In this document: piece after piece, positions 500 through 39,051 of the stretch
Layout: every line of letters begins with the position of its first letter
How positions within the stretch are numbered: the stretch's first letter is position 1
Source of the DNA: an uncultured Azospirillum sp.
GTDB taxonomy: Bacteria > Pseudomonadota > Alphaproteobacteria > Rickettsiales > UBA3002
Assembly (NCBI GenBank): GCA_964621415.1
Contig: CAZUOS010000001.1
Location: 3,329 to 42,379 of the forward strand
DNA: 39,051 nt
Reading direction: 5' to 3'
Position numbers and translations under genes: made by a program
The notes under the pieces: model-generated
Told to the model about the DNA's origin: nothing
Seen by the model: only the letters and a program-made list of their open reading frames with translations
Database searches by the model: none

Positions 500-927
500 T
501 CGAAATACTCCTCGCCTTCGTGTTCCGGGAGGACCCCTGTCCAGATCGGCTTCAGGATCTCTGGCCAGAGCCAATCCCTGACCCCCAGGATCGCGCCCAG
601 GGCCAGCAGGAAGGCCAGGAGCAGGATCAGGTGGATTGGCCCGGCAATGGGGAAGATCAGGACATAGCCCCTGCGGACACTGACGGGCCAGCCCTCATAA
701 CCCCTTTCCCCCTGCCAGGCGGGCTGTAACCAGGCCCGCCACAGGGTTTCGGCCAGGACCAGGGGGATTATAACCCCCAGGACCAGAAACGCCGCCAGGC
801 ACAGCCTGCACAGCAGGGACAGGGGGAATGACAGGACATAGACCCGCCGAAGCCAGGAGGGCCAGCCCATAACGTTCCACAGATCCCAGAGCATGGTCCG
901 GGGCTCGTCGATCCAGGTTTCGTTCAT
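496..927 (-). CDS. multi-pass membrane protein of the lysis cassette (143 aa)
   Basis: Trp-rich, with several hydrophobic helices (VLSFPLSLLCRLCLAAFLVLGVIIPLVL; IHLILLLAFLLALGAILGV). ATGA start/stop overlaps at both ends. Confidence 0.55.
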   Translation of the reverse strand: MNETWIDEPRTMLWDLWNVMGWPSWLRRVYVLSFPLSLLCRLCLAAFLVLGVIIPLVLAETLWRAWLQPAWQGERGYEGWPVSVRRGYVLIFPIAGPIHLILLLAFLLALGAILGVRDWLWPEILKPIWTGVLPEHEGEEYFE

Positions 928-1187
928 GACTTGAACTTCCCCAGGAGTTTCCCTTTGATCTGCTTGGTCGGCGCCGGTTTCGTGGTGATGTGCCTCAGGA
1001 TGATATTGAGGACGTTGATGCCGACGACCACCCAGGGGGCGTAGATGGGATCGATGAACTCGCGCCAGTCGACGACGGCCATGTAAGCCATGACTTCGGC
1101 CAGGGCGAACCCGATCGCCATAGCCAAGTTGATGACGATCGTCCGCCAGCCTTCGAGGCGAGCCCAGATCCTTTTCAGAATATTCAT
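924..1187 (-). CDS. putative holin (87 aa, two TM helices, basic C-terminus)
   Basis: Hydrophobic segments TIVINLAMAIGFALAEVMAYMAVV and APWVVVGINVLNIIL, with tail KQIKGKLLGKFKS. Lies immediately after the endolysin with an ATGA overlap. Confidence 0.5.
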   Translation of the reverse strand: MNILKRIWARLEGWRTIVINLAMAIGFALAEVMAYMAVVDWREFIDPIYAPWVVVGINVLNIILRHITTKPAPTKQIKGKLLGKFKS

Positions 1188-1876
1188 GGCGAGAAACCTC
1201 CTTTGATCATGGCAACGACAACGGCGATGAAAGCGGCGATGATCGCCGCGATGGCCGCAGCCACGCCGTTCGTCACCCGTTTCTTTTCGACAGGGACCGG
1301 GACCGGGACAGGTTCGGGCTTCGGGAGGACTGGTTCGTCATCCAGAAGCGCCAGAGCCTTTTCGAACTTTTCAGCGTACCCGGCGATCAGGTCCGCATCG
1401 TCCTGGCCGTTCACGACATATCGCATGCCCTTGTAGGTCGCGTAATCCGAAAGTTTCTTCTTGGTGAACCAGCCTTCGGTCATACCCAGGACACAGATGT
1501 GAACGGCTAGCGTTGGGTTCAGCGCCAGGTCCGGCATCTTCACCAGATCCAGGGACTTGTCCATGAGCCCGAGTTCTTTGAGCCGCTTGTCAGCCCGCAT
1601 GTAGTTTTCCAGCCAGGTCAGCTGGACCAGGCCGCGGCCGTAATAGATCTTCCGATACGGACCCGCGGGCTTGCCGTATTCCTTCCCGCGGCCTTTGCCG
1701 TATTCCTCGATCGGCTTCATTGTCCGATCGACTTCGTGCCAGACGGTCGCCAGGATATAGGCGGCGTGACGAAGGGGGATCTTCCGAATGGCCGGCACAA
1801 GAAGATTGAACCCGTCGACTTGCGTCTGGTTCAGTGGTCCGAATTGCCGGCGGACTTCCGCAAAAAATTCTTTCAT
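1184..1876 (-). CDS. endolysin, glycoside hydrolase family 19 (chitinase-like) with Pro/Val linker and C-terminal TM anchor
   Basis: Motifs ATVWHEV...EEYG and YYGRGLVQLTWLENY are typical of GH19-type phage lysins. The C-terminus is PKPEPVPVPVPVEKK followed by AAAIAAIIAAFIAVVVAMI. AGGTGA lies upstream of the ATG. Confidence 0.85.
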   Translation of the reverse strand: MKEFFAEVRRQFGPLNQTQVDGFNLLVPAIRKIPLRHAAYILATVWHEVDRTMKPIEEYGKGRGKEYGKPAGPYRKIYYGRGLVQLTWLENYMRADKRLKELGLMDKSLDLVKMPDLALNPTLAVHICVLGMTEGWFTKKKLSDYATYKGMRYVVNGQDDADLIAGYAEKFEKALALLDDEPVLPKPEPVPVPVPVEKKRVTNGVAAAIAAIIAAFIAVVVAMIKGGFSP

Positions 1877-1884
1877 GAAATCAC

Positions 1885-2268
1885 CTATACGCCCGGGGGT
1901 TCAAAGAAACAATATGTGCCGTCACGTGGATCTCTCCAACCGACATCGTAATCCTTCGCCAGGATACAGATATGGTAATTCAGATCTTCGGACGGTTGAA
2001 CCCGGTCCCAGGGGATCAGATGATCGAATGCTTGAATTCGATAAGGATTGATCTTCTGCGCCTGTTCGAGAGTCAGGCGAACCCGGTATCCATCTTTCTC
2101 AACGGATAAAACCCCCGGAGTGTCGATAGGGAGGACAGCGCAATCGCTACCACCGCAGCAGCCTTTCTTGTGCACGGGATCGACCTTCTGCGAGTACCAG
2201 TCGTGAGCCTGGGCGCTCGGAGGACAGAAACCGAGGAACAAAAAAGCAGCGGCGATAGCGATCCTCAT
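1885..2268 (-). CDS. secreted Cys-rich protein (127 aa)
   Basis: Signal-peptide-like N-terminus MRIAIAAAFLFLGFCPPSAQA|HD, with cluster KKGCCGGSDC. ATGA overlap with the upstream ORF. Confidence 0.6.
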   Translation of the reverse strand: MRIAIAAAFLFLGFCPPSAQAHDWYSQKVDPVHKKGCCGGSDCAVLPIDTPGVLSVEKDGYRVRLTLEQAQKINPYRIQAFDHLIPWDRVQPSEDLNYHICILAKDYDVGWRDPRDGTYCFFEPPGV

Positions 2269-2576
2269 CCTCTTGGTATTCTCCTGTCTTGGCGATCGTC
2301 GTATAACGGCGTTAGCCTCTTTTCGTTTTTGTTGCTGATATCGTCAATCTTCGACTCGATGCGATCGAGCCGGTCCGTCACCGTTCGCAAGTAGTCCTTC
2401 TGGACATACCGATCGTCGGCGAACTGAACGTAGGTAGCGAGCTGCTCCTGAATTTTCAGAGTCATAGTATATTGGTTCTGGAGCCACCATCCTCCGAAGA
2501 AGATGGCGAGACCTGTCACGACGGTCCAGAGTCGCTGTTCGACTCGGGTCGCATACGAGGTTGGTTCATCAGTCAT
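2265..2576 (-). CDS. N-terminally anchored membrane protein with coiled-coil (i-spanin-like topology)
   Basis: TM segment LWTVVTGLAIFFGGWWL followed by a charged helical region (DRLDRIESKIDDISNKNEK). ATGA overlap with gpD-like stop. Confidence 0.55.
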   Translation of the reverse strand: MTDEPTSYATRVEQRLWTVVTGLAIFFGGWWLQNQYTMTLKIQEQLATYVQFADDRYVQKDYLRTVTDRLDRIESKIDDISNKNEKRLTPLYDDRQDRRIPRG

Positions 2577-3688
2577 AGTTCGGGCACTCCGTAACCACCA
2601 AAGTCAAGGTCCGTCGGGGGGACACTGTCTCCGCCAGTGCCACCGGGGATATCGCCCGTCGATGTTCCGTCCCCACCTGTGGCTTGGTCAGCTGCGGCCT
2701 TGCCGGCGGCGCCCGGATATTCGGCGTCGATGATCGTCGTGTACCCCCTCCCATCCAGTTGATGCTGGGCCGACTTGACCCGCCAGGCGCCATCGACGCC
2801 GCTGCGGACCCCAATCACAGCCAGGGTCATCTCCGCGCCGATCGATGGATTGCCGACGATTGAAATAGATAACGACCCCTGGTCTCTCGCCTGGGCGTCG
2901 ATCGTGCTCTGGGCGTCAGCCCCAGCTTCATCTTCGTTGGCCTGGGCGTGCAGCATTTCGTAGTCCGGGCCGACGTCGCTGTCCCCTTCTTTCTCGACGA
3001 TGACCCGTTCGGCTTTCTTCTGGTCCCAGTACGTCGAGAGGACTTTCTTGACCGCCGGCCGGTCCCGCATCTGGCAAGAATAGTCGATCACCTTGTCCTT
3101 GGTGACGACCGCGGCACCCATCGACTGGCCGGACGCCGACTGGGCTTCTCCTTTCTTCGTGAACAGGAGTTTGCCATTCGCCGGCTTGGCCACAGCGTCA
3201 TGCTTGCGGGCCAGGCGGGTGATGAAATGAAGATCGCTTTCTTCAGTCTGGGGGAGATATTCGTATATAAACGAAGCGAGAGACTGGGAAACGGAAGCCC
3301 CGGACAGGCCGTTCCGGCCAGCAATGTCGTTCATGATATCCTGGAGGGTTTTCTTGTCCCAGTATCCAGTCCGAGGTTTCTTCAGATCCTCCCGCATATC
3401 CGCAGCCTTGCCGCGGATCGTCAGCGTCATCGGATAACCTGTCGCTTCGACTTCGTCGACGGTGAACATGCCCATGGGCTGAAGACCGGTTTCCCGATAC
3501 CCCATGGCCACGGACATAAGGGCGCCCTTCTTCGGAATAGCAATTTCGCCATTCCGATCGTCGAGCTGGATCTCGACTGTGTCCGACTGCTTGCCTTCGG
3601 CATCTGTCACGATCAGCGACACGAGGCGATCGTTCAGATTGCCCGTGACGTCGGTGCCGCCGATGGAAATGCTGAAGCTGGGGGTCAT
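2573..3688 (-). CDS. tail protein D (P2 gpD / late control D family)
   Basis: 371 aa. N-terminus MTPSFSISIGGTDVTGNLNDRLVSLIVTD...GKQSDTVEIQLDD and motif EESDLHFITRLARKHDA are typical of gpD-like proteins. Follows gpU and gpX homologues. Confidence 0.85.
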   Translation of the reverse strand: MTPSFSISIGGTDVTGNLNDRLVSLIVTDAEGKQSDTVEIQLDDRNGEIAIPKKGALMSVAMGYRETGLQPMGMFTVDEVEATGYPMTLTIRGKAADMREDLKKPRTGYWDKKTLQDIMNDIAGRNGLSGASVSQSLASFIYEYLPQTEESDLHFITRLARKHDAVAKPANGKLLFTKKGEAQSASGQSMGAAVVTKDKVIDYSCQMRDRPAVKKVLSTYWDQKKAERVIVEKEGDSDVGPDYEMLHAQANEDEAGADAQSTIDAQARDQGSLSISIVGNPSIGAEMTLAVIGVRSGVDGAWRVKSAQHQLDGRGYTTIIDAEYPGAAGKAAADQATGGDGTSTGDIPGGTGGDSVPPTDLDFGGYGVPEL

Positions 3689-18281: not shown

Positions 18282-18601
18282 TTGTTTTCAGTGTCCTGAA
18301 GCATGGAAATGAGTTTCGCCCGGCTCGTCCTGTCGTTGACCGCCAGGTTACGAGAGGCTGCCAGGGTCCGGAGTTCTTCGATAGTCATCTTGTCGAGGTC
18401 CGGCGGAGTGGGATTAGAAGCCCCGTCACCGGAACTGGCGCCAGTATCCGCCGCATTCGTCTGTTCATTCTCCGTCGTCGATTGTGTCTCCGCCGGGACA
18501 CTGTCCTCGATACGAAATCCCAACCCTTTCAGTTCTTCGATCTTCGCCGGGTCGGAAACGTCGATCTTGTGGCCGTCGCTATCACGAATGAGAATTGCCA
18601 T
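18278..18601 (-). CDS. small acidic protein with C-terminal SAP/Rho-N-like helix pair
   Basis: 107 aa with C-terminus MTIEELRTLAASRNLAV...RAKLISML. GAGGAG SD. First gene after the post-capsid terminator. Confidence 0.6.
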   Translation of the reverse strand: MAILIRDSDGHKIDVSDPAKIEELKGLGFRIEDSVPAETQSTTENEQTNAADTGASSGDGASNPTPPDLDKMTIEELRTLAASRNLAVNDRTSRAKLISMLQDTENK

Positions 18602-18619
18602 TCTCTTCTCCTCTTGGTT

Positions 18620-18651
18620 AAAAGACCCGGCGGAGGTTATCCCTCCGCCGG
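18620..18651 (-). terminator. rho-independent terminator/attenuator after the coat gene
   Basis: Minus strand reads CCGGCGGAGG-GATAA-CCTCCGCCGG followed by GTCTTTTAA: a 10-bp GC stem (18627..18636 / 18642..18651), 5-nt loop and T-run. Confidence 0.8.
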
Positions 18652-18671
18652 TCGTACAATCTCAGCTGGGA

Positions 18672-19844
18672 TCAGCCGAGCATGCGGGCTGCCAGTTCGG
18701 CGCGGAGCGTCTTGACACCGAAGAGGATATCAAAGCGCCAGTGCCTGGTGGCCTTGCCCGGCTCACGCCAGGTTTCCAGACGGAGCGGAATACCCGTCAC
18801 CGGGTCCGTCGCGACGGAAATCGTGGACGACTCCGAGCTTTCCGAGGTCAGCGTGCGGGCCGCGAACATGAACGCGTTGCGGTGGAACGCCAGATTGATC
18901 CCGTAAGTCGTTCCGGACGACGGCTTCGTGAAGGTAAGTCCCTTCGCGGTCGGGAAACCACCGGTCGGAGCTGCGGGATAGAACGAGATGGAAGCAAAGG
19001 CTCCACCCACCGCCGCTACGTCTGCCGTCACGACGAACTGCATCGCCGTGCCGTCTGCGTAGTTCACGTCGGCCACGGTGAACGTATCACCCTTTTTCAG
19101 GGTATTGGTTCCCGTGAAACCGTTCGCGGCCATGGTCGTTGCGCCGGCAGCGACGGCGCCATTGACAGCACCGGTCGCTTCAGCTGCGGCCGTGCCGATC
19201 GTGTGGCGCGGCATGAGCTGATCCGAGAAGGTCTCGAAACCGAACTTGCGACCGAGGGAAGCTTCCACCAGTGCCTCGGTCGAACCGGTCTTCGCGGCGT
19301 CGGCGTAGAGGATGATGAACTTCGCTTCCGCGTTGATATCCAGGACCAAACGACGGTTCTGGAGAGGAACAAGGTTGCGCTGAAGGACGGCACGGACCGC
19401 GACGATATCGTCCGACGCATCCGGAGTCGAACCGGCGGTGCCGGCCGAATACGGAATGTCCTTGTAGAGTGCGACCAGTTCCTTGTCGACGGCGTTGGCC
19501 AGAGCCTTGATGGCGCTGTCCGCGGCAGAGGGAAGAACGCCGGACGTCACCGTCTCGCGCATTTCCTTGTCCGTCATCTTGAACTGCTTGTACTTCCACT
19601 TGTCGAGAACGATATCGACTTTCGGATCCTTCAGGTCAGTCGCCGAAGATCCGTTGTCGGTATCCATGTCGCCAGCTTCACCGAGATCCTGCGGCAGCGG
19701 GACGCGGATGGTGGCGTTCTGTTCCGCCGCTTCCGCGGCGAAGTCTGTAGACACGAGGGCCGGCATGACGCAGGCTTCACGGAGAACCGGAAGGGCTGCA
19801 GGCATGATGATCGTGTCCATCAGGTCCTGAAGGTCGTTTGACAT
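18672..19844 (-). CDS. major capsid protein (P22 coat protein family)
   Basis: 390 aa. ...INLAFHRNAFMFAARTL...DPVTGIPLRLETW resembles P22 gp5-like coats. Preceded by the scaffold gene. Confidence 0.9.
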   Translation of the reverse strand: MSNDLQDLMDTIIMPAALPVLREACVMPALVSTDFAAEAAEQNATIRVPLPQDLGEAGDMDTDNGSSATDLKDPKVDIVLDKWKYKQFKMTDKEMRETVTSGVLPSAADSAIKALANAVDKELVALYKDIPYSAGTAGSTPDASDDIVAVRAVLQRNLVPLQNRRLVLDINAEAKFIILYADAAKTGSTEALVEASLGRKFGFETFSDQLMPRHTIGTAAAEATGAVNGAVAAGATTMAANGFTGTNTLKKGDTFTVADVNYADGTAMQFVVTADVAAVGGAFASISFYPAAPTGGFPTAKGLTFTKPSSGTTYGINLAFHRNAFMFAARTLTSESSESSTISVATDPVTGIPLRLETWREPGKATRHWRFDILFGVKTLRAELAARMLG

Positions 19845-24889: not shown

Positions 24890-27019
24890 TTATCCGATTT
24901 CGAAGATCGTCACATCGTCGTGGCAAGTGAAGTCGACCTGGCTTACGTTTCCACCGCCGCCGGCCGTCGTCCAGGCCAGCGTCTCTTGAGAAAGAGCCGC
25001 CCTGGTGTAAGGCCGGGTGTAACGAACGGGTTTCGACGTCGGGAGGTTCAGCCGGATATTCCTCGAAGTGAAGGAGTTCCCGACAGGCGCTGTCCGTTTC
25101 CAGGACTCGCTGTTCCTCCAGACCGGCAGAAGCCACTTTCCATCAGACCGCTGATAAAGCTGCCAACGGATCGTGCCATCATATTGGCCGACTGTCCCGC
25201 CGTCACTGAACGAGTATTCGAGGTTCGTCTTGTTGAACGTCCTCGCCGTTCCGGCACCGTCCCACATCGCCTTCAGCGTCAGGTACATGATGTACCAGAG
25301 CATGCGACGAGTGAACGTATAAACTCCACCTGCTTGGCTGAAGGCCAGGAGGCCATAAACCTTACCAGGGGAAGTCGGGAGGTTCGGAAGCTCGTGCGCG
25401 TTATCGATCATCTCGAACGCGTTGAAGCCAGTGATCCCCCACCACTGATAGTCGAACATGGACCGCTGGTAATACTTGCAGCGGGCTTCTTCCGTCAGGA
25501 AACGGACTGTGAAGCTGCGGCCGTCTGTGCCGCCGAGTTCCCAGCCTTCTTCCGTGATCTTGACTTTCTTCGCCGGATCGAGATTGACCAGTTCCTTGTA
25601 CTGGGCCATCAACTTCGTGATGTGTATCGTCACATCGTTCGATCCACCTTCGTCCAACAGGCCGTCGGTCTCACCTGCAACGTCCGGCATGTTGCCGCCG
25701 GTGTACAGGTGGAGGTTCGGCCAATCGACCAACGGAACCACGTCACGAGTCCACTGCCTTCCGTTCGGGTTCGTATAAGGCTGGAAAGTGTCATAGTACA
25801 TGACCCCCGCCTGGTTCGCCCGAGCCGTCGTATGGACATAACCTTCATACAGGACACTGCGGATCTTCTGGATCAGACGAGACCACGGAGACCAGGAACC
25901 AATCGTCAGATCCGTCGGCCAGTTCGGGTATTTCGTCATGTTGCGGATTTCATGGCAGATCACATACTGGTGATCGATCACGTAACCGCGCCAGCCGTCC
26001 GGCGACCCTGGCCGAGGATCGTACATCGGTTCGTCCGGGTTATTGGGCTCGTTCAGACCCGCAAAGGCATTCATCGCCTCTTTATAGTAATTGTAACACC
26101 GCTCGATGATCGTCTCGGCGCCGATTGCCGTTCCAGAAAACTGGTTCAAATCCGTCAGTGTGCCGTTGATCCTGACGCCATAATCATCATACATCTTCTG
26201 GATGATCTGGGCCGTCATATTCGTCGAGTTGTCAGGGCAGCCGCAAGTCGAACGGACGAGTTTCATCCCTACGCTGGCCAACGGCGCGAAGTGCCCCAAA
26301 TACCAGCCGGACGTATCGTACGACCCTGTGTTCGCTCCGTTCGCCGTACGATACGCCATATAAGGATCGCCAGACCGACGAGTCAGATACATCTGAAGCA
26401 TCTGGCCGTCGGAAAATTCGATCGCCCGCTTCGGAACGAAGTTTGGATCTGGCGGAACGACGACGTCATCCAGGGTCGAGTCGGTAAAGACTGCCGACGG
26501 CGGACCGAACGTCGATCCGTCCGTGGCGCGGATACGGAAATCAAAAGCCGTACCCGGAAGCAAGACCCCAACGGTTCCCTGGGTCGTCGTCGACAAGTCC
26601 CGCCAGTTATTGGCCGCGTTCACGTCGACCTGGTATTTCGTGGCACCCGGAACGGCGTTCCAGCTCAGGGTGACCGAAGTCGTCGTGCGGCTGACCCGAG
26701 CGACGCCCGTGACCTGGGCCAGTGAAACGGACCCGGTGATCGTGAATGTGAACGAGGCATCCAGGGTCCTCCCAGTTTCCAGTTCCGTCATTCGAACCGT
26801 GCAATTATAAGTCCCGGCCACGTCGCTGATCAGGCTCAGTACCGCGTCGATGATCTGCATGTTCGCAGACCCCGATACGATCCCATAGACGACCCCGGGC
26901 GTGTTCGACTTCAGGACAATCGAAGGATCCGAACCAGCAACGGCGTCCACAGTCAAAGAACAGGTGAACGCCAGAGGGATGACTTCGCGACCGACCCGAA
27001 GCTTATAGAACCGCGTCAT
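24890..27019 (-). CDS. Ig-like + FN3 + putative clan GH-A (TIM-barrel) glycoside hydrolase; candidate polysaccharide depolymerase
   Basis: 709 aa. FN3-like SVTLSWNAVPGATKYQV (aa ~115-130). AFAGLNEPNN (Glu324) resembles the NEP acid/base motif, and KITEEGWE (aa 488-495) resembles the nucleophile motif ~166 aa later. ATGA overlap with the upstream gene. Confidence 0.65.
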   Translation of the reverse strand: MTRFYKLRVGREVIPLAFTCSLTVDAVAGSDPSIVLKSNTPGVVYGIVSGSANMQIIDAVLSLISDVAGTYNCTVRMTELETGRTLDASFTFTITGSVSLAQVTGVARVSRTTTSVTLSWNAVPGATKYQVDVNAANNWRDLSTTTQGTVGVLLPGTAFDFRIRATDGSTFGPPSAVFTDSTLDDVVVPPDPNFVPKRAIEFSDGQMLQMYLTRRSGDPYMAYRTANGANTGSYDTSGWYLGHFAPLASVGMKLVRSTCGCPDNSTNMTAQIIQKMYDDYGVRINGTLTDLNQFSGTAIGAETIIERCYNYYKEAMNAFAGLNEPNNPDEPMYDPRPGSPDGWRGYVIDHQYVICHEIRNMTKYPNWPTDLTIGSWSPWSRLIQKIRSVLYEGYVHTTARANQAGVMYYDTFQPYTNPNGRQWTRDVVPLVDWPNLHLYTGGNMPDVAGETDGLLDEGGSNDVTIHITKLMAQYKELVNLDPAKKVKITEEGWELGGTDGRSFTVRFLTEEARCKYYQRSMFDYQWWGITGFNAFEMIDNAHELPNLPTSPGKVYGLLAFSQAGGVYTFTRRMLWYIMYLTLKAMWDGAGTARTFNKTNLEYSFSDGGTVGQYDGTIRWQLYQRSDGKWLLPVWRNSESWKRTAPVGNSFTSRNIRLNLPTSKPVRYTRPYTRAALSQETLAWTTAGGGGNVSQVDFTCHDDVTIFEIG

Positions 27020-30882: not shown

Positions 30883-30995
30883 ACCGATCCTCCATAGACA
30901 TAAGCCAGAATGGCCGTTGCGACGAAGACGCCAACGATGGCCAGAGTGGCAATAGCGATAACGGCGCGGGAAACCCGAACAGGTTCTTCAGTCAT
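30879..30995 (-). CDS. small membrane protein (38 aa), not in the ORF track
   Basis: My own translation is MTEEPVRVSRAVIAIATLAIVGVFVATAILAYVYGGSV. Its TGA overlaps the ATG of the next gene (ATGA), and its start overlaps the upstream gene by 8 nt. Confidence 0.35.
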   Translation of the reverse strand: MTEEPVRVSRAVIAIATLAIVGVFVATAILAYVYGGSV

Positions 30996-31215
30996 CTTCG
31001 TTCACCACGATCGTGTCAGTCGCGGTCTTCGTCAGGAGGATCGCGGCCATGCAAAGTTCAGACGCTTTCATCTGCGACCAATCAATGTCCATCGTATCGT
31101 CATCCCACTGAATGATAACCGCGACGTTCTTGATCCGATCAAGTTTTCCTAAGGTCCGATGAAGGACGACTTCGGGAGTGAGTGTCGTTCCCGGCAGATG
31201 TTTGACTTCACCCAT
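30988..31215 (-). CDS. hypothetical protein (75 aa)
   Basis: I prefer the ATG at 31215 (GGAG 9 nt upstream, TGATG overlap with the Mu F-like stop) over the track start 31233. Confidence 0.5.
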   Translation of the reverse strand: MGEVKHLPGTTLTPEVVLHRTLGKLDRIKNVAVIIQWDDDTMDIDWSQMKASELCMAAILLTKTATDTIVVNEDD

Positions 31216-33059
31216 CAGAGTTTCTCCGGCCATAGTCTTACCCAGGCGGCGTAGTCCCTCTGTTTCAATTCGTCAAGCGTTAACGCTTTGCCATCCACAC
31301 TGAAACTACCGAGTGGCACCCCGCCGGATTTCCACAACGTATATCGAGCGTCGCCCAACGTATCCCGCTGGGTTTCTTCGTCCTGTTCACTGAGCCAGTT
31401 CTCATAAGTCGGTTCGGCTTCGACCGGCGACCCGACGGGGATGGTTTCTATTGTACACCTGCAGTTACCTGTAGTAATACCATCGGCAACGATCAGATGG
31501 TTTTCCGTTTCGAGGTTATAGACATGTCCATGAAAATCGCGACGACCCACAAAGACTATATCATCAAAGAATACCTCGCCGGGAAAGGCACAACACAGAT
31601 CAGCGGCTATCTGGGCATTCATCGGATATCCGTCCGAAGGATCCTTCAGCTGAACGGAGTTCAGATCCGAAGCCGCAGCGTAGCCATGTCCCTCCGAATG
31701 AAAAACTCGACCCCCGAACAACGGCAGGCCCTCACCAAGAAAGCCCATGACGCTGTCCGCGGAAAGAAAGGAAAGAAACGGACCCTGGAGTCTCGTCTCA
31801 AACACGCTCTCACCAGAGAACGGCGTGGATCGCAATTCCACTTGTCCCCTGGCGAAAAGATCTTCTCTGCAACGCTGGCAGACCTTGGCCTGGTTGGTAT
31901 CCCCGAAAAAGCGATCGGTCCATACAATTGCGACTTCGTGTTCGGTTCCGTCGCCGTGGAAATCTTCGGCGGCGGTTGGCACGATGGCAGTATTACGTCC
32001 GCCAGGAACCAAGAACGGGTCCGCTATATCTTGAATGCGGGCTACTCGTTGCTGATGATTTCCACGAGTAGGCATACTATGACCCCGGAGGTCGCAAAGT
32101 ACGTGGCAAGTCTCATCAAGCGCTTGCGCCGGAAGCCACCCGCGATCCGTGAATACCGGATGATTTGGGGTGCAGGCGAGTTCGAAACCCGAGGCCGTGC
32201 GGATGACGACGAGCTGTCCCTTAAATTTCCTCTTCGCCGCAGCCGTGATCGGCTGGGTCGTTACAAGGGTATCCCCCGGTAGACAATTAAAATGGATTGG
32301 CGGTCGCGGCCCTTCCCCCACCGGGAATATCTCACCCGCCAATTCGGCGCAGGCCAAGCATGCTCGGCTATCAAGTGTCGTAATCCACCGGACCCCTTCG
32401 AACAGGTCCGGGTTCTCTTTCGCGAATGCCTCGTGGCTCTCGTTATGAGCCGAAGCGGTTGCGGTCCTGACCGCGGCTTCGAGCATCCGCCGGCTGACAG
32501 CGAATGCGCCGTCTTTGTAAGACAGCGACTTCGTTCCGGAGACCCGCTTGACGATCTGGTCCATGGACTCGCCCTGGACCAGACCCATCGTGACGGCGTC
32601 ACTGATACGCTTCTGCGAAGAAGCGCTCAGATCGTCGAACCAGGTCTTCAGAAGCCGGCCCTGGAACGGCTTGTTGTCGACCGCGGCTTCGAGCAGCCGC
32701 GACGTGGGAACGTTGAACTTGACACCGATCGTTGCCTGAGTCGCTGCCAGGGTCTTGGCGAATTCTCCTTCGCTCTTGGCCAGATCGACGAGTTCTTTCC
32801 GCGTCCCTTTATACATGGCGCGATGGGCGGCCACGTTGATCTTCTTGATTTCAGCGAGGAGTTTCTCCAGCTGACGACGGGTCGCGGCGCCGTAGCCAGC
32901 CTCGGTATCGTGGGAAGCCAGCCACTTCAGAAGCTTCCGTTCGATATCCGCCTCGGCCTTATCGAGGATAGCGGCGATCTTACGGATAACCCCCGTCGCG
33001 AAACGCTCGACCCCAATGCGATGGAGGATCTGGGCATCAAGCTTCGGGGACGTTGCCAC
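31215..33059 (-). CDS. head morphogenesis protein (Mu F / SPP1 gp7 family) interrupted by an in-frame intein
   Basis: 614 aa with a GTG start. The family motif is split as PPIHFN / intein / CRCT. Lies directly downstream of the portal gene. Confidence 0.9.
   Translation of the reverse strand: MATSPKLDAQILHRIGVERFATGVIRKIAAILDKAEADIERKLLKWLASHDTEAGYGAATRRQLEKLLAEIKKINVAAHRAMYKGTRKELVDLAKSEGEFAKTLAATQATIGVKFNVPTSRLLEAAVDNKPFQGRLLKTWFDDLSASSQKRISDAVTMGLVQGESMDQIVKRVSGTKSLSYKDGAFAVSRRMLEAAVRTATASAHNESHEAFAKENPDLFEGVRWITTLDSRACLACAELAGEIFPVGEGPRPPIHFNCLPGDTLVTTQPITAAAKRKFKGQLVVIRTASGFELACTPNHPVFTDRGWLPAQALDETCHVLCDLRGHSMPTRGNHQQRVARIQDIADPFLVPGGRNTAIVPTAAEDFHGDGTEHEVAIVWTDRFFGDTNQAKVCQRCREDLFARGQVELRSTPFSGESVFETRLQGPFLSFLSADSVMGFLGEGLPLFGGRVFHSEGHGYAAASDLNSVQLKDPSDGYPMNAQIAADLCCAFPGEVFFDDIVFVGRRDFHGHVYNLETENHLIVADGITTGNCRCTIETIPVGSPVEAEPTYENWLSEQDEETQRDTLGDARYTLWKSGGVPLGSFSVDGKALTLDELKQRDYAAWVRLWPEKL
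31464..32285 (-). mobile_element. intein (274 codons, aa 259-532 of the Mu F-like protein)
   Basis: Starts CLPGDTLV (Cys1 codon 32283..32285). Block B is ACTPNH. Ends HVYNLETENHLIVADGITTGN (Asn codon 31464..31466) followed by Cys+1. Confidence 0.85.
31524..32282 (+). CDS. homing endonuclease candidate: N-terminal HTH + Vsr/DUF559-like PD-(D/E)xK nuclease, encoded antisense inside the intein
   Basis: HTH is GTTQISGYLGIHRISVRRIL. Nuclease core is IGPYNCDFVFGSVAVEIFGGGWH...RVRYILNAGYSLLMI. GAGG lies 8 nt upstream of ATG 31524; alternative starts are 31497 and 31530. The last ~50 codons are probably just read-through antisense to intein blocks A-B. Confidence 0.7.
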   Translation: MSMKIATTHKDYIIKEYLAGKGTTQISGYLGIHRISVRRILQLNGVQIRSRSVAMSLRMKNSTPEQRQALTKKAHDAVRGKKGKKRTLESRLKHALTRERRGSQFHLSPGEKIFSATLADLGLVGIPEKAIGPYNCDFVFGSVAVEIFGGGWHDGSITSARNQERVRYILNAGYSLLMISTSRHTMTPEVAKYVASLIKRLRRKPPAIREYRMIWGAGEFETRGRADDDELSLKFPLRRSRDRLGRYKGIPR

Positions 33060-34485
33060 CTAAGGACTCGCTTTCGATCATCAGTTTTTCTTTTTCGTCG
33101 TCGAAGTCCGGGTTCAGAACGCCGCGGCGTTTCATCTCAAGCCAGAACGTCTCCCGGCTGATTTCCCCGGTCGCCCTCATCTTCAGCAGCGAGTCGATTT
33201 CACTCTTCGCTGTCAGCGACAATCCGAAGTCACGGTTCACGGTCACCGTGGCCTTGGACTCACTCCCCAGCCATTCTTCGGTCAGCGCAAGCGCCTGATT
33301 GAGAGCGTCGTTCAGATTGATCGCCGCTTTCTCGATCGACGTATGAGCCCTGGACTCGTCGATCGACCGGGCTGTGGCTGTAACGCCGCCGGTGTCAGCG
33401 ATGACGGGCTGCAGGCCCATGACCCGAAGTTCGTCCGTAAGGACTTCCAGGTCCTTCTGGCCCTGAGCGATCGCCGTGCCCTGGACTTCGACCCAGTACC
33501 ATTTGCCCTGGGCGTCTTCCGTGAAAAGCAGCGTATAAGGACCGAACGCCGGCTTCTCATCTGCTTTGAATTCAGGCTTCGCTCCAGCAACGGCCAGAAT
33601 GGGGAACCTGGACGCCGTCAGGATATTGCGCTGGTCTGACGACGACTGGTAATGCTCGATCTGTTTGAAGCCCAGATCCAGAAACAGGGGCTTGACCGTT
33701 CCGTCTTGGCGGCGCCGTCCGGCAATCACCGGAACGAATGGCAAGCGGCTGATCGTGAAGACGCCTTCCTCATCGACGACCCAGGTCTGTTCGCCCTTCT
33801 CATTCACCGACTGGCGATACAGCCGCCATGATGGCTGGCCCAGATCGTTGAAGAAAAGCTCGCGGACCCGTCGCGTCACCGACTCGGTAAAGACACCGGG
33901 GATCGGCTCGTCGTGTGTCTCTTCCAAGATCCTGGCATATACCATCCGGATCTTGCCGTCATCATGAATGCTGAAGTAGCAGGACAGGACGTTCTCCGCC
34001 GTGACCTGGACCCAGTAAGGACGGGCATTCGATTTCTTCACATCCGCGATCGTCGGCTTACGGCCCGGAGGAGCGATCGCCGACGACTTGGGGTAATCAA
34101 CGAAAATATACCCCAGGCCAGCAACGACCGAGTCCTCAAAGACGTCCGAAGCGAACTTGTGCAGGTCATTGCCGTTCAGATCGACGTCGGCCATGATCCC
34201 TTCAAGTTCCGGCGACGCGTCTTTCAGCGTCACATTCCGGCGGAACGGCATGGCTGAGACGTTCCGAACGGCGTCTTCGAAATAGTTCGTCAGAACGGCG
34301 CGAGCCAAACGGTTGGCGTAAGACGTAGCCGTTTCCGAGTCGTACTTCGGCAGATAGGTTTCGCCCGCGGCCCGCATCTGGCGGGTTCCCGCCATCAGTA
34401 TCCGCAGCATAGACCAATCTGCCGACATGGCGCTGTGCGCTGCCGACGGAGTGTCCGGGGTAAGTGTGACGGGTTCAGCAGCCAC
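33037..34485 (-). CDS. portal protein
   Basis: 482 aa between terL and the Mu F-like gene. ...WSMLRILMAGTRQMRAAGETYLPKY... resembles DUF4055-type portals. The GTG start is uncertain (alternative ATG at 34428). Confidence 0.8.
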   Translation of the reverse strand: MAAEPVTLTPDTPSAAHSAMSADWSMLRILMAGTRQMRAAGETYLPKYDSETATSYANRLARAVLTNYFEDAVRNVSAMPFRRNVTLKDASPELEGIMADVDLNGNDLHKFASDVFEDSVVAGLGYIFVDYPKSSAIAPPGRKPTIADVKKSNARPYWVQVTAENVLSCYFSIHDDGKIRMVYARILEETHDEPIPGVFTESVTRRVRELFFNDLGQPSWRLYRQSVNEKGEQTWVVDEEGVFTISRLPFVPVIAGRRRQDGTVKPLFLDLGFKQIEHYQSSSDQRNILTASRFPILAVAGAKPEFKADEKPAFGPYTLLFTEDAQGKWYWVEVQGTAIAQGQKDLEVLTDELRVMGLQPVIADTGGVTATARSIDESRAHTSIEKAAINLNDALNQALALTEEWLGSESKATVTVNRDFGLSLTAKSEIDSLLKMRATGEISRETFWLEMKRRGVLNPDFDDEKEKLMIESESLGGNVPEA

Positions 34486-34497
34486 TTGGTCTATCCA

Positions 34498-36915
34498 TTA
34501 TATGAGCTGACCGGCAATCCCGCCGGACCTGGACTTTTCAAACAGAGTATTGAACGCGTCGGCGGCAGAGTCGACCTGATCGTCGTTCTTACCGAACGGG
34601 AAATGCCTCAGTTCATTCGTGAACGGGTAATTCCAGTCGCCCCGCTTCATCATCACGGACCCAACGTTGACCTGAGCCGCGAAAGGTTCGGCCCTTGTCA
34701 CTTTGTCTCCGCTCACAGGAGCGCTGACAACGGAAAACCCTCCCAGGGCGCGAGTCAGATACGTGATCTGGGCTTTGCCTGCCTGGCCCGGATCTTGGGG
34801 AAGCTTGATCTTCACCCGCGGGCCGTCGAGCTTTGCCGTCGAGACGATCCGTTCTTCGACCTGATCGGGCGTTCCCTGGAAACGAGTGACGTCCTTGATC
34901 ACGAACCTGTTCGCCGGGGTCTTGCCGATCAGCGTACCGACTGTCCAGTCGCCGTCGTTCTTCGTCGCTGCGAGATCCCAAGCCCGAACCCATTGGAGGA
35001 CGCCTTCGGTCGAGTCGACGACCTCGATCTTGTCCGGCTTGAAGATACCGCCGGCCGGGGGAACGGGCTTCTGCTGGTACTGCGAAGAGAACGACCACGG
35101 CTTCGCTTCCTGCATACGGAGGAGATCCTCAACGGAGTGTTTCTCTTCCCACAGGGCCGTGCCGTCCTCCTGAAGCGCCGGGAGATTGATATGGTCCCAG
35201 TGCTCGCCGTTTCCGCCAGCCAGAAGCCAGCCTGCCAAATCCTCTTCATGCAGACGCTGCATGATCAGAATGATCGGCGTATCCTTCGTGTTCTTTCTTG
35301 ACTCCAGCGTGTCCTGGAACCAGCGGATGACCTGCGGCCTGATCACATCCGAGTCTGCTTCCCCCGGCTTGTGGGGATCGTCAATAATTATACAATTAGA
35401 AACTAGAACTGGCTTTTGGGCCACGTAAAAGTTATTATTGTTCCTCACTTCCAAACAGAAGGTATGATCAACATGGCCAATACGACGAATGAAAACTGGA
35501 TGCCGGTCCCAGGATTTGAAGGATTTTACGCTATCAGTGATCAGGGGAATATCAAAAGCCTTGACAGAACTATCATTCACAAAAACGGTATTTCTCAAAA
35601 AATCGCCAGTCGTATCCTGGTCCCGAAAATCAGTAAAAAGTATCTCCGGGTCACACTGTCCAAGAATTCCAAACTCCATTTTGTTTTCATTCACCAACTT
35701 GTCCTGAAAACTTTCGTTGGCCCTCGGCCACCGGGAATGGAAACCCGACACCTTGATGGGGATTACTTCAACAACCGGCTCGCAAACCTCGCTTATGGAA
35801 CCAAGTCCCAAAACATGCAAGACGCTATCAGACACGGGACATTCCCGCTTCTCGAACGGCGACCCGGCGCCAAACTTACACGAGACCAAGTTATCCAAAT
35901 TTTCACGAGTCAACAGTCGCCGATTGAACTCGCTAACAAATTCGGTATCGTCCCAGGCGTTGTTCGCCAGATTAAACTCCGGCAGACATGGGTAACCATC
36001 ACGAAAGACCTGCCCGACCCCATTTGGAATTTCAAGCCCAAACATTCCGAAGACGTCATCGCAATCGCCAGCGATCTGACGATCAGCCGAAAAGAAGCTA
36101 TGACAAGAACCGGGCTGACCCTGGCTCAACTCAAACATATCCGGAAGAAGAGTCGTGTCCGATAAATACTGAGCTTCCATCCAGCCTTGTGACGTAAAAA
36201 TCTTATGATTAGGCGTACACTGGAAAACCGTCCCATCGCTTAATGTAACTTCCAATATCTCATTCGGAGGATTATGCCACAACGTATCGACAGGCTGGAG
36301 TTCTTCCTGACCCGTCTGAAAATTATATGACCAAACGCGGATATCCTCTCCACGTGTAACGATATCCCCGATCTTTATCAGTCCCTTTTCCGTGTGAACC
36401 AATTCATCATAGGGGAAACAGCCACCGAAGCCCGGCCGGACCTTTCCCGCGCCATAGCCTGTAATGGTACCCTGAGCACCTGCGGCATAGACACAACCGC
36501 CAGCCGTGGTACGCCATTCGTCTTTGGCCTGCGTATCATCCCGCAGTCCCACATTCGGGAACAGGAGGTGATAGTCCTCGTGCATGGCGATCTCCCGGGC
36601 TTGCCAGGAGTTCGTTGCAGCGAGGCGGGCTGCATAGGACGTATGAATGAATTCGGCGTCCGGCGCCATTCCGATCCCCCAGGGGATGAAGTTGACGACG
36701 GCCAGTTCGGTCTTCGAATAACGAGGCGGCAGGTTGATGACCAGCCGGCTCGTTTCGCCGCGGAACACTTTCATCAGCGCATCGCATATCATCTTGTGGT
36801 GCGGCGCCTGATGCCACTTGAAGCCATGACGGGCTTTGAACATGTAGCGGACGAAGTAATAGTAGTCTTCCCTCGCCAGCTTCTGTGCGATCAGCAGTTC
36901 TTCGCGGGTCATCAT
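34498..36915 (-). CDS. terL: terminase large subunit interrupted by an in-frame intein
   Basis: 805 aa. The ATPase N-terminus carries LPPRYSKTE (Walker A-like), and the Walker B-like strand is split as GFGG / intein / CIIIDDPHKP. ATGA overlap with terS. Confidence 0.9.
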   Translation of the reverse strand: MMTREELLIAQKLAREDYYYFVRYMFKARHGFKWHQAPHHKMICDALMKVFRGETSRLVINLPPRYSKTELAVVNFIPWGIGMAPDAEFIHTSYAARLAATNSWQAREIAMHEDYHLLFPNVGLRDDTQAKDEWRTTAGGCVYAAGAQGTITGYGAGKVRPGFGGCFPYDELVHTEKGLIKIGDIVTRGEDIRVWSYNFQTGQEELQPVDTLWHNPPNEILEVTLSDGTVFQCTPNHKIFTSQGWMEAQYLSDTTLLPDMFELSQGQPGSCHSFFSADRQIAGDCDDVFGMFGLEIPNGVGQVFRDGYPCLPEFNLANNAWDDTEFVSEFNRRLLTRENLDNLVSCKFGAGSPFEKRECPVSDSVLHVLGLGSISEVCEPVVEVIPIKVSGFHSRWPRANESFQDKLVNENKMEFGILGQCDPEILFTDFRDQDTTGDFLRNTVFVNDSSVKAFDIPLITDSVKSFKSWDRHPVFIRRIGHVDHTFCLEVRNNNNFYVAQKPVLVSNCIIIDDPHKPGEADSDVIRPQVIRWFQDTLESRKNTKDTPIILIMQRLHEEDLAGWLLAGGNGEHWDHINLPALQEDGTALWEEKHSVEDLLRMQEAKPWSFSSQYQQKPVPPAGGIFKPDKIEVVDSTEGVLQWVRAWDLAATKNDGDWTVGTLIGKTPANRFVIKDVTRFQGTPDQVEERIVSTAKLDGPRVKIKLPQDPGQAGKAQITYLTRALGGFSVVSAPVSGDKVTRAEPFAAQVNVGSVMMKRGDWNYPFTNELRHFPFGKNDDQVDSAADAFNTLFEKSRSGGIAGQLI
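35395..36420 (-). mobile_element. intein (342 codons, aa 166-507 of TerL)
   Basis: Starts CFPYDELV (Cys1 codon 36418..36420). Block B is QCTPNH. Ends HTFCLEVRNNNNFYVAQKPVLVSN (Asn codon 35395..35397) followed by Cys+1. Confidence 0.85.
35473..36165 (+). CDS. NUMOD4/HNH (HNH_3-type) homing endonuclease encoded antisense inside the terL intein
   Basis: MANTTNENWMPVPGFEGFYAISDQGNIKSL, then HQLVLKTFVGPRPPGMETRHLDGDYFNNRLANLAYGTKSQN, then an HTH-like KLTRDQVIQIF...LANKFGIVPGVVRQIKLRQTW. GAAGG lies 10 nt upstream of the ATG (alternative ATG 35464). The segment is locally A/T-richer. Confidence 0.85.
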   Translation: MANTTNENWMPVPGFEGFYAISDQGNIKSLDRTIIHKNGISQKIASRILVPKISKKYLRVTLSKNSKLHFVFIHQLVLKTFVGPRPPGMETRHLDGDYFNNRLANLAYGTKSQNMQDAIRHGTFPLLERRPGAKLTRDQVIQIFTSQQSPIELANKFGIVPGVVRQIKLRQTWVTITKDLPDPIWNFKPKHSEDVIAIASDLTISRKEAMTRTGLTLAQLKHIRKKSRVR

Positions 36916-37493
36916 ACGTCGTTCAGAAGTCGGCTTGAGACTTCTTCATACTGATCCGATGTGATATTGATCACGAACTGGCGACGGTTGTCGATCATCG
37001 TCGGGTCCGCCTTCTCGCCGTAACGCTTCGGCGCCAGCTTCGACGCGAGCCACTGGAGGTTCCGGATCTGGGCAGAGACACGCTGGTAGTTTGCGTCATT
37101 CATTTCGTCGGTCAGCTCGCGGATCTGATCCATGACGGCATCTTGCTGGAAATCTCGCGCCTGCTTGATACGCACAGAGACTTCGCCTTCGGGGTCTTTC
37201 GCCATGGTTTTATAAAGATCTTTTGTGGACGGCATATCCCGTGGTGCGCAGACTTCGCCAATCCCCAAACCCATGACCAACCCCTCGCAAACCTTATCCA
37301 GCATGCCAGGGTCGGTGATCTTCGGCCTGCGGCCAACAGGACGGATCTGGACGCCCTTGGCCAGCCTGTATCCCGAATACGTCAGGTCGCTGATTGTCTC
37401 CGACGGTTCCTCGCCGTCGAAGTACCCATCGCGAGTGACCGTGCGCCGCCGGCGCCGTTCCGTATCTCCTGGCTTTGTCTTGGTGTGCTTCAT
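36912..37493 (-). CDS. terS: terminase small subunit
   Basis: HTH-like ...KVCEGLVMGLGIGEVC.. and C-terminal ...IRNLQWLASKLAPKRYGEK are typical of terS. Lies directly upstream of terL. The start is uncertain (ATG 37493 versus GTG 37520). Confidence 0.75.
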   Translation of the reverse strand: MKHTKTKPGDTERRRRRTVTRDGYFDGEEPSETISDLTYSGYRLAKGVQIRPVGRRPKITDPGMLDKVCEGLVMGLGIGEVCAPRDMPSTKDLYKTMAKDPEGEVSVRIKQARDFQQDAVMDQIRELTDEMNDANYQRVSAQIRNLQWLASKLAPKRYGEKADPTMIDNRRQFVINITSDQYEEVSSRLLNDV

Positions 37494-37598: not shown

Positions 37599-38141
37599 TT
37601 AACCCACAGCCGCTGCAGCCACTACGTTCCTTGCCGGTACGCGGACTTCGCGTACAGACCCCAGCATGGTGACGTAGACGCTTGCTTCTTGTCGATTGAT
37701 TGAAGCCAGCTGGACCAGGAAGCCATCCAGTATCCGGTCCGGCCAGTTGATCCGCACCCAGTCGCCGACCTTGAAGGCGCCAGTGGTCGCGGGCTTCGTG
37801 AAATCCGTGTCCCTGACACAGCCGTCCGGGTCGGCCATCCTTCTGATGGCGTCGACGACCGTGTCCGGGATTGAAATGGGGGTGCCGTCGATCGATACGA
37901 CGGCGAGGACGTCCGGTATGGTCTTCAGGTACCAGACCCAGTATGGCTCCACCCGGGCGAACAGGTACTGGGTGAACAGAGCCCGTTCTGTCTTGACCAG
38001 CCGGGACTTCCGGAACCTGCGGACCCGCTTGACCTCCCGGATGAAGGGGAAGAACACAGGCGTGGCTGGGCTATCCGATTTGATCCGGTCTGCCACGGAC
38101 CTTTCGGCGTTCGGTCGCGAATATACAGCCAGCCAGGACAT
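37599..38141 (-). CDS. NusG-like transcription antitermination protein (NGN + KOW)
   Basis: I prefer the ATG at 38141 (GGAG 6 nt upstream). NGN-like WLAVYSRPNAERSV...ALFTQYLFARV. KOW-like FKVGDWVRINWPDRILDGFLVQL...VYVTMLGSVREVRV. Confidence 0.8.
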   Translation of the reverse strand: MSWLAVYSRPNAERSVADRIKSDSPATPVFFPFIREVKRVRRFRKSRLVKTERALFTQYLFARVEPYWVWYLKTIPDVLAVVSIDGTPISIPDTVVDAIRRMADPDGCVRDTDFTKPATTGAFKVGDWVRINWPDRILDGFLVQLASINRQEASVYVTMLGSVREVRVPARNVVAAAAVG

Positions 38142-38356
38142 GTTGAGCTCCACGGTATATCCAAAGTTCGCGGAGAGGGAAACAAAATTATTTACATATA
38201 AATAGCGCCGTGGTACCCTCCAACCAGGACCTCGGAATAGGGGTCCATTTCTGTTTCTAGGCCATCCGCACCTTTTCCGCATCTTTTGAAAAAACAAAGG
38301 TGCAAGCCAAATCGTACAGTAAACTGAATGGTTTAGCAGAAACAGAAATAAATGAC

Positions 38357-38611
38357 AGTCGCTCCTAAGATGCGACTCCTTTCCCCAGGCCTTTCAAGGG
38401 GTTAGCTCCCGAGTCGCATCATGTAATCCGAAAACGCGCATATAGCGGTATAACATATTCCCAGGGGGAGCCCTGCCATGGGGGTGTATTATATGTATAT
38501 ATATATATTAATAAATTATATTAGTATTAAAAAAGTAATTACAAGATGCGACTCAGGACTCAACCCCCTGGAAACAAAAGGAAAAAGTGTTGCATCTAGG
38601 GGAGCGACTCC
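38357..38611. repeat. cluster of GCGACTC-core repeats in both orientations
   Basis: AAGATGCGACTC occurs at 38367..38378 and 38543..38554. Its inverted copy GAGTCGCATC is at 38411..38420. AGTCGCTCC at 38357..38365 is the inverse of GGAGCGACT at 38601..38609. Confidence 0.6.
38486..38541. promoter_or_regulatory. near-pure A/T tract with (TA)n run; candidate unwinding element or promoter/UP region
   Basis: tattatatgtatatatatatattaataaattatattagtattaaaaaagtaatt sits in otherwise GC-rich DNA and is flanked by the repeats above. Function is not established. Confidence 0.35.
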
Positions 38612-38840
38612 CCCTGGCAGCATTTCTGCTAAGTCCTTGATTTCAAACCGATCCGCAGCTCGCACCCAGGGTTTTTGAGAAGTGGCGACTTTCGTATAAT
38701 AATCAGCCCTCTGATCAACCGTGAGTCCGCGAATTCAGGTCCTTTTCCAGGGCACCACCAACCTAAAGGTCATCGCGGCGCGCGGCGAGCGCCCCGCGGG
38801 AAGGGTCCAGAAGGGTCTAAATACTGAAATTGCCCCGTGA

Positions 38841-38893
38841 CGCGTCGCGGGGACTTTTCAGTCCGCGGAGCGCCGGCGCGTCGCGGGGACTTT
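38841..38893. repeat. 17-bp direct repeat CGCGTCGCGGGGACTTT x2
   Basis: Copies lie at 38841..38857 and 38877..38893 (36-bp period). The first copy is part of the imperfect palindrome CCCCGTGACGCGTCGCGGGG. Confidence 0.6.
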
Positions 38894-39051
38894 GGTTGGC
38901 TTGAGTCCCGAGGGGGCATTCCCTAAGGGCTGCCAGCTTTGCGGAGCTTGCGCCTGGCGGCGATCCCGCTGGACCCCAAGGGGGTAATCCCCCGGACCCC
39001 TGGAAGCCCCCAGGGGGCACGCACCAGGCGAAGGGTGCGACCTTCGCGGGG

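Follow-up and report, generated by a model that had tools for sequence, protein, structure and literature searches.

Inteins whose homing endonuclease is encoded on the opposite strand were already reported by Gorbalenya in 1998, as cited in a preprint by Gosselin, Arsenault & Gogarten (bioRxiv 10.1101/2025.01.02.630785), which, in the part of its text available to us, describes antisense LAGLIDADG and VSR-like homing endonucleases in the minor capsid and terminase large subunit (TerL) inteins of actinophages and proposes that inteins were invaded by free-standing nucleases. Here, we analyze two inteins in a 39,051-nucleotide stretch of DNA (the window) from an uncultured Azospirillum sp. (assembly GCA_964621415.1, contig CAZUOS010000001.1, positions 3,329 to 42,379), where a phage late operon on the minus strand includes the TerS, TerL, portal and MuF-like head morphogenesis genes. 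The TerL and MuF-like genes each contain an intein, and opposite each intein, in exact codon register with it, lies a nuclease gene on the plus strand. Very probably, each locus is a mobile intein with its homing endonuclease carried as a separate opposite-strand gene, the register having been set by a viability filter together with purifying selection.

The architecture is already known, and the MuF element, which carries a Vsr-like nuclease, belongs to it. As in the actinophage elements, insofar as the consulted text of the survey describes them, a contiguous MuF/minor capsid or TerL intein holds an opposite-strand nuclease open reading frame (ORF) between its splicing blocks, the middle of the intein frame has no recognisable fold, the distribution is sporadic and a Vsr/EDxHD-like identity is given by a match to 3R3P. 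Unlike in that survey, again within the same portions of it, the TerL element here carries an antisense NUMOD4-HNH nuclease, a class reported there only in frame, and the elements occur also in Jerseyviruses, in BUCT618 and Aaphi23, and in phages of Vibrio, Pseudomonas and Helicobacter; no discussion of codon register or of TTA/CTA/TCA avoidance was found in those portions of the preprint. What appears to be new, as far as the literature covered extends (the survey being represented by part of its text), is the antisense NUMOD4-HNH gene in a TerL intein, the spread in phages of Proteobacteria, a quantified frame -1 rule and, over the entire MuF intein, apparent dual coding with reciprocal stop avoidance.

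Three further systems offer comparisons. In fractured genes, a free-standing Vsr-like endonuclease gene stands between the halves of a split intein (Dassa et al. 2009, cited in the available part of bioRxiv 10.1101/2025.01.02.630785); the same nuclease superfamily is associated there with an intein, and the free-standing nuclease is presumed to be the intein invader, but here the host ORF runs through without a break, the nuclease having a stop-free antisense frame. The cyanobacterial dnaX intein, with an out-of-frame (+2) LAGLIDADG endonuclease (bioRxiv 10.64898/2026.09.14.751524), shares the disordered in-frame middle, the overlapping nuclease ORF and the frame-dependent ratio of nonsynonymous to synonymous substitution rates (dN/dS), although there both reading frames belong to one strand, shifted against each other, and ours are antisense and in register. 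Finally, frame -1 antiparallel ORFs have the same geometry: long antiparallel ORFs are concentrated in this frame, and it is a textbook property that stops arise in it only opposite TTA, CTA and TCA (bioRxiv 10.1101/724807). Most such ORFs are non-coding shadows, unlike the present ones, where the antisense gene is selected over the linker and the host-frame peptide is the passenger, and where both strands appear to be selected over the N-terminal splicing domain of the MuF intein.

Two inteins and the nuclease genes opposite them

The TerL gene (34498..36915, minus strand) encodes an 805-aa precursor that matches PHROG 38 at 3.7e-103 and Terminase_6C at 4.7e-15 and is collinear with 13 TerL homologues bearing the same element. 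Its intein occupies aa 166-507 (35395..36420, minus strand), matches the Pfam family Intein_splicing (PF14890) with 38.8 bits (cutoff 35.8) as well as Hint, and is bounded by the junctions GGC|FPYDE and VLVSN|CIIIDDPH, so that the insertion point falls immediately before the Walker B-like IIIDDP motif; Cys1, a block B TPNH, and the terminal Asn with Cys+1 (SN|C) can be read in the sequence. The MuF-like head morphogenesis gene (31215..33059, minus strand) encodes a 614-aa precursor with matches to Phage_Mu_F at 7.8e-10 and to PHROG 241 at 1.6e-91, and hosts the second intein at aa 259-532 (31464..32285, minus strand; PF14890 at E 1.2e-4). With junctions HFNC|LPGD and TTGN|CRCT, this intein lies inside a conserved H-x-N-C-R-C motif, at a site that is identical in all aligned relatives, and contains Cys1, TPNH and GN|C. 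Both elements are thus in-frame insertions with a Cys1, a block B, a terminal Asn followed by Cys, and a HINT profile. The Pfam intein/HINT signal is confined to the two ends of each intein, and no Pfam match was obtained in the middle of either. One unbroken host ORF crosses both elements, as it does in all nested relatives, which sets them apart from fractured genes and split inteins. Both inteins are predicted to be self-splicing, because TerL and MuF are essential and the splicing blocks are conserved, the ratio of substitutions at third and first codon positions in the host frame (p3/p1) being 1.7-2.2 in the splice domains.

Opposite the linker of the TerL intein lies a NUMOD4 + HNH_3 homing-endonuclease gene (35473..36165, plus strand; 230 aa + stop). 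The full ORF extends over 35416..36165, with a probable start at ATG 35473, and matches NUMOD4 at 5.5e-14 (52.6 bits, cutoff 23.4), HNH_3 at 5.9e-11 (42.3 bits, cutoff 24.8) and PHROG 1492 at 8.8e-49. The catalytic His and Asn residues of an HNH homing endonuclease are kept, with H93, N101, N105 and H121 invariant. A Shine-Dalgarno-like GAAGG (35458..35462, plus strand) stands 10 nt 5' of the ATG, which itself pairs with a conserved His codon (G-H-V-D) just upstream of block F of the intein; in 11 of 12 nested relatives, the ATG again faces a His codon and an AGG-type motif is retained. The ORF is essentially confined to the linker, its overlap with block F amounting to a few codons at its start, and its end varies in position near the end of the N-splice domain.

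The gene antisense in the MuF intein (31524..32282, plus strand; 252 aa + stop, from a full ORF of 31497..32282 with a probable start at ATG 31524) encodes a helix-turn-helix (HTH) plus Vsr/EDxHD-like (PD-(D/E)xK) homing endonuclease, an identity that required a family profile: the ORF alone gives a weak HTH match only, and a single-sequence PDB search with the 31497 ORF returned noise. A profile of 51 family members matched the DUF559-type nuclease 3HRL (2.2e-5), I-Bth0305I 3R3P (0.009) and Vsr 1CW0 (0.25), and 35 of the 51 members match PF18741. In agreement, an AlphaFold2 model (pLDDT 86.5, confident to about residue 225) has as its top Foldseek matches I-Bth0305I 3R3P (prob 1.0, TMt 0.63) and E. 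coli Vsr 1VSR (prob 1.0, TMt 0.58). E111, D137 and E146 are invariant and H153 and H158 near-invariant, so that membership of the Vsr-like/I-Bth0305I family is given by the fold match together with the conserved acidic and His residues. The G+C content (GC) of the nuclease regions is 0.48 (HNH) and 0.55 (Vsr-like) versus 0.58 for the phage. The two plus-strand ORFs are genuine and mutually unrelated nuclease genes, one with an HNH and the other with a Vsr-like PD-(D/E)xK fold, and both in the window and in its relatives the nuclease is an opposite-strand ORF within a contiguous, open intein. With these elements, the antisense architecture comes to include an HNH-type nuclease and reaches, beyond actinophages, many phages of Proteobacteria.

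Codon register and stop avoidance

Recomputing the frames bore out the exact register described in the initial annotation: codon low coordinates are 1 mod 3 both in TerL (34498..36915, minus strand) and in the HNH ORF (35416/35473..36165, plus strand), and 0 mod 3 both in the MuF-like gene (31215..33059, minus strand) and in the Vsr-like ORF (31497/31524..32282, plus strand). Its observation that neither nuclease gene uses TTA, CTA or TCA was matched by our codon count (0 of each in both ORFs); Leu is encoded by TTG, CTT, CTC and CTG, and Ser by TCT, TCC, TCG, AGT and AGC. The plus frames are also bounded where it had placed the bounds, by TAG or TAA opposite TerL L504 (CTA), TerL L251 (TTA) and MuF L260 (CTA), which is true by construction. 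Given the register, moreover, lacking these three codons and having an intact host ORF are logically one and the same, so that the former is no independent observation.

The minimum number of stops that synonymous recoding cannot avoid was obtained for each antisense frame by a dynamic-programming search. For the HNH gene it is 0 in register, 4 in frame a2a3|b1 and 2 in frame a3|b1b2; for the Vsr-like gene 0, 0 and 1, in the same order; and for a third nuclease, described below, 0, 2 and 2. The value of 0 in register upholds the proposal that this frame can be kept open purely by synonymous codon choice. Off-register antisense frames opened in 0 of 20,000 synonymous resamplings; they are mostly not openable by synonymous change. 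The third, independent nuclease class comes from Gordonia phage Lennon (locus L178), whose MuF intein contains an antisense ORF of LAGLIDADG type; this ORF is likewise in register, the host gene at 526..3636 (plus strand) and the ORF at 1510..2220 (minus strand) both being 1 mod 3. A Pfam search of the Lennon antisense ORF gave no match, and its identity is based on an I-MsoI LAGLIDADG motif match, PHROG 5046 and the published assignment.

The register is the product of a viability filter and purifying selection and is effectively forced. It is shared because the essential host protein must stay uninterrupted, with only in-register insertions or inversions surviving, and no special mechanism of origin is therefore required. 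In none of about 95 loci examined was the host gene seen split in two. The register result explains how antisense nucleases can reside inside inteins at all, since of the three antisense registers a single one leaves the host protein uninterrupted, and the frame -1 rule predicts the register of every such element.

How much the codon usage itself reveals was assessed against several nulls. In the window, TTA, CTA and TCA together make up 0.74% of 9649 extein codons of phage genes. When synonymous codons are redrawn according to phage codon usage (20,000 draws), the in-register frame remains open with a probability of 0.185 for the HNH gene and 0.110 for the Vsr-like gene, and the codon usage of the exteins of the host gene itself gives 0.26 and 0.05, respectively. 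Codon usage from free-standing HNH homologues lowers these values to 0.004 (HNH) and 0.0013 (Vsr-like) with all 57 homologues, to 0.0025 and 0.0007 with those having a GC content at third codon positions (GC3) of 0.45-0.65, and to 0.034 and 0.016 with those at GC3 >= 0.65, the Vsr-like values in each case coming from the HNH-family codon table applied to the Vsr-like protein. Probabilities of 7e-4 and 1e-4, derived from the A-ending codon usage of the homing endonuclease genes themselves, were judged inflated and set aside, CTA and TCA being under-used relative to other A-ending codons phage-wide.

The initial annotation had cautioned that genes in this DNA also produce long spurious ORFs in the same register, and rightly so. 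The plus-strand ORF 18303..19841 (512 aa) is in register with the major head gene (18672..19844, minus strand), and 24920..26725 (601 aa) with a tail gene (24890..27019, minus strand). Neither has any family or PHROG match, unlike their minus-strand partners, and both are consistent with frame -1 shadow ORFs. Such shadows are recognized by having no homologues and no purifying selection; both nuclease ORFs have homologues and are under purifying selection.

Relatives were collected by alignment-based scans of IMG/VR, which gave 80 loci for the HNH gene, where single-protein searches had returned few; for the Vsr-like gene, relatives were confirmed for 561 of the first 600 candidate stretches and the nesting figures come from the best 80 loci. 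Across both families, 93 of 93 distinct related nested copies are in register and contain no TTA, CTA or TCA, at GC3 values down to 0.19. The HNH gene is nested in TerL homologues at the same site in 10 distinct IMG/VR copies, in locus L005 and in Escherichia phage BUCT618, where a 50% identical copy lies antisense under the TerL coding sequence (tblastn); the nested HNH relatives, 13 copies in all, keep the register without exception at a GC3 of 0.19-0.67, and not one of their 2304 codons is TTA, CTA or TCA. The best 80 Vsr-like loci are all nested in register with none of the three codons. About 60 Salmonella Jerseyviruses have a Vsr-like copy antisense in MuF at the identical H-x-N-C|R-C position; copies occur also in Aaphi23, in phages of Vibrio, Pseudomonas, Gordonia and Idiomarinaceae and in one Helicobacter prophage, and all of these are likewise in register and devoid of the three codons. 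Neither the best 80 IMG/VR loci nor the phage records listed contained a free-standing close homologue of the Vsr-like nuclease.

The comparison with free-standing copies was restricted to the HNH gene. The initial annotation had named, as an outcome that would undo its argument, free-standing relatives that equally lack the three codons, and this is not what was found: 57 distinct free-standing HNH homologues carry them at 2.08% of codons, only 7 of the 57 genes having none. The in-register antisense frame is fully open in those 7 of 57, and each of the other antisense frames in 0 of 57. A full-length free-standing NUMOD4-HNH gene at 2501..3280 of locus L083 (IMGVR_UViG_3300029288_000080), 32% identical over residues 7-225, has 14 TTA, CTA or TCA codons in 260, in contrast to the nested clade. 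When each host gene's own extein usage is taken as the null, the probability that a nested copy has none of the three codons is 5e-7 (locus L025), 2e-6 (L018), 2e-10 (a Vibrio phage, L012), 4.5e-6 (Aaphi23) and 1.5e-6 (the Helicobacter prophage, 36% GC, L015). Codon avoidance across the relatives is far beyond chance and is selected, a conclusion that follows from AT-richer nested copies, with the low probabilities just given, together with codon-bearing free-standing relatives. The initial annotation's judgment that the pattern is no coincidence is therefore not demonstrated by the window alone, where shuffling leaves the frame open 11-19% of the time, and holds across the relatives; of the two causes it had offered, selection is borne out by the AT-richer relatives, and a common mechanism of origin is not needed, the register being imposed by viability. 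In the AT-rich loci L015, L012, L121 and L163, the Leu content of the nested nuclease is below that of the host exteins (3.6% versus 10.9% in L015), and stop avoidance may be shaping amino-acid composition as well as codon choice.

Selection on the two strands and possible dual coding in the MuF element

In the HNH family, substitutions cluster at the third codon position of the nuclease frame (16/10/50 at positions 1, 2 and 3 between loci L021 and L022), and dN/dS, at 0.13-0.15 for the nuclease frame, rises to 0.8-1.3 when the intein frame is read. Along TerL, the host-frame p3/p1 is 2.09 in the N-extein, 1.85 in the intein N-splice domain, 0.57 in the linker antisense of the HNH gene, 2.16 in the intein C-splice domain and 1.94 in the C-extein; the drop to 0.57 over the linker identifies the TerL linker peptide as a passenger. 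The dN/dS values over the linker of the Vsr-like family agree, the nuclease frame having 0.26 and the intein frame 0.90; Salmonella phages LSPA1 and PK1, with 8 differences in the gene, are too close for substitution analysis. The linker is probably unstructured, judging from the dN/dS near 1, the lack of domain matches and the published models of related elements.

The Vsr-like ORF is nearly co-extensive with the MuF intein. Its ATG at 31524 pairs with the His codon of block F (H-V-Y-N-L-E, giving E-V-I-D-M on the other strand), and a Shine-Dalgarno-like GAGG (31512..31515, plus strand), 8 nt 5' of this ATG, arises from the antisense of the block F N-L codons. The start motif is kept in at least 32 of 75 relatives, with AGG in 30 of those; these counts come from regular expressions (strict, 17/70; broader, 32/75) and are a lower bound, as many matches begin past extra N-terminal HTH repeats. 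At its other end, the ORF terminates at 32280..32282, on the complement of the Leu2 codon (CTA) of the intein; 47 of 76 loci have the nuclease stop facing intein residue 2, and in every locus it falls within -7..+16 of the intein start.

The DNA from 32067 to 32282 carries both the intein N-splice domain (minus strand) and the last 72 codons of the Vsr-like nuclease gene (plus strand). The plus frame across the N-splice domain contains 0 stops in 71 loci, AT-rich ones included, against about 91 expected in total from extein codon usage. Over the 72-codon overlap, the host p3/p1 is 1.06 and the host p3 0.36, compared with a p3/p1 of 1.85 in the TerL N-splice domain, which has no such overlap, and 1.56 in the MuF exteins, which points to constraint on both strands, i.e. 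true dual coding. The MuF element would then be about 820 bp of selfish DNA coding on both strands nearly throughout, its nuclease start and stop the complements of the block F His and Leu2 and about 72 of its codons dual-coding for the HINT domain and the nuclease tail, both under purifying selection with mutual stop avoidance; it would be among the best-supported and most widespread cases of antisense dual coding in phages, and 'frame -1 only' would be general for antisense intein nucleases. This composite claim is a tentative one, to which we give slightly less than even credence. The element may serve as a natural and abundant model of genuine antisense dual coding, and the architecture gives an experimental handle, as a Leu or Ser codon swap in one frame is a stop in the other, so that the nuclease can be inactivated while the intein is altered only minimally, or the intein broken with the nuclease protein left as it is.

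Mobility and competing explanations

The elements are sporadically distributed. The MuF gene of LSPA1 is matched by 451 phage records, 58 of which contain the intein, and intein-less alleles occur in the 87-88% identical Jerseyviruses ER2, RA140 and RA112. In locus L010 (IMGVR_UViG_3300036760_000785; 3001..3378), what is left of the Vsr-like ORF in the MuF intein is its C-terminal half, the HTH region being gone, and the element looks as if it were decaying toward a mini-intein. Gordonia phages Lennon (LAGLIDADG-type) and Affeca (L013, Vsr-like) have different antisense-nuclease inteins at the same MuF site, and their exteins are 99% identical (N-exteins); the Affeca MuF protein is 1083 aa long and may contain more than one element. 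Together, these patterns fit gain by homing followed by decay. In the Jerseyviruses, the label of the host gene varies between 'NAD+--asparagine ADP-ribosyltransferase' and 'structural protein'. The nested nuclease is unannotated in nearly all records, counting LSPA1 (L002), PK1 (L003) and the matches to the LSPA1 gene, and in almost all Jerseyvirus and BUCT618 records seen; the frame -1 rule thus doubles as an annotation rule for nuclease genes missed by gene callers.

A life cycle consistent with these data can be proposed, in which splicing, plus-strand expression, DNA cleavage and homing are all deduced from sequence. The host gene, TerL or MuF, would be translated straight through the element, and the HINT splicing halves at both ends would excise the intein, whose middle, the antisense translation of the nuclease gene, would be a passenger loop with the absence of a stop codon as its sole requirement. 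The nuclease would be translated from the plus strand through its own Shine-Dalgarno sequence and ATG, and would cut intein-less alleles in co-infecting phages, after which repair would copy the element in full. Because a stop in the intein frame would abolish an essential gene, the only survivors would be nuclease insertions or inversions with an open antisense frame, and frame -1 is the only one whose stops all fall opposite codons that have synonymous replacements (TTA and CTA for Leu, TCA for Ser).

Several observations weigh against reading each locus as a mobile intein with a functional opposite-strand nuclease and a selected register. The PF14890 score of the MuF intein, 22.4 bits, is below the Pfam gathering cutoff of 35.8; the penultimate His is absent from both inteins (SN in TerL, GN in MuF); a scan for sigma-70-like promoters 5' of both nuclease genes (window 30900..36600) found none; in the window alone, the codon absence is only weak evidence of selection and not statistically compelling; and each nested family probably has a single origin, so that the rule rests on about three independent events.

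Of the alternatives, we consider it unlikely that a special common origin set the register, for example through in-place inversion of an in-frame domain at codon boundaries or through register-specific insertion. In-frame HNH inteins do exist (bioRxiv 10.1101/2025.01.02.630785, in the part available), an inversion preserves length and hence the downstream frame, and all three nuclease classes are in register. Yet an inversion yields the in-register frame only 1/3 of times, so that the viability filter would still be needed, and the filter alone predicts about 100% in-register outcomes; moreover, the nested HNH gene has its own start and Shine-Dalgarno sequence and is most like free-standing NUMOD4-HNH genes, including the L083 gene with its 14 stop-generating codons. 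Very unlikely, too, is that the loci are decaying relics, with the inteins now vertically inherited and the plus frames open merely from constraint on the intein frame: some relatives have decayed, such as L010 with its truncated nuclease, and the missing promoter agrees with this view, but the intein frame imposes no need for an open plus frame, the catalytic motifs are intact, the plus frame is under purifying selection while the linker peptide evolves neutrally, and the distribution is sporadic among 87-88% identical Jerseyviruses. Coincidence, by which an in-register frame would often be open in a 58% GC phage and the plus-strand ORFs and their register would be meaningless, is extremely unlikely, for although the frame is open with a probability of 0.11-0.19 under phage codon usage and shadow ORFs of 512 and 601 codons occupy the same register in the major head and tail genes, the plus-strand ORFs have strong nuclease family matches where the shadow ORFs have none, dN/dS in the plus frame is 0.15-0.26, and the arrangement is still found at GC3 0.19-0.4, where a frame would be open by chance with a probability of 1e-4 to 1e-10.

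The P-value formula used here is the same as in bioRxiv 10.1101/724807. A megablast search with window positions 31000..37000 gave no match in the phage collection, and the phage in the window is therefore without a close cultured relative. Between the two intein-bearing genes lies the portal gene (33037..34485, minus strand), and toward the end of the window, at 38001..39000, there is a further dip in GC, to 0.53 versus about 0.58-0.60.

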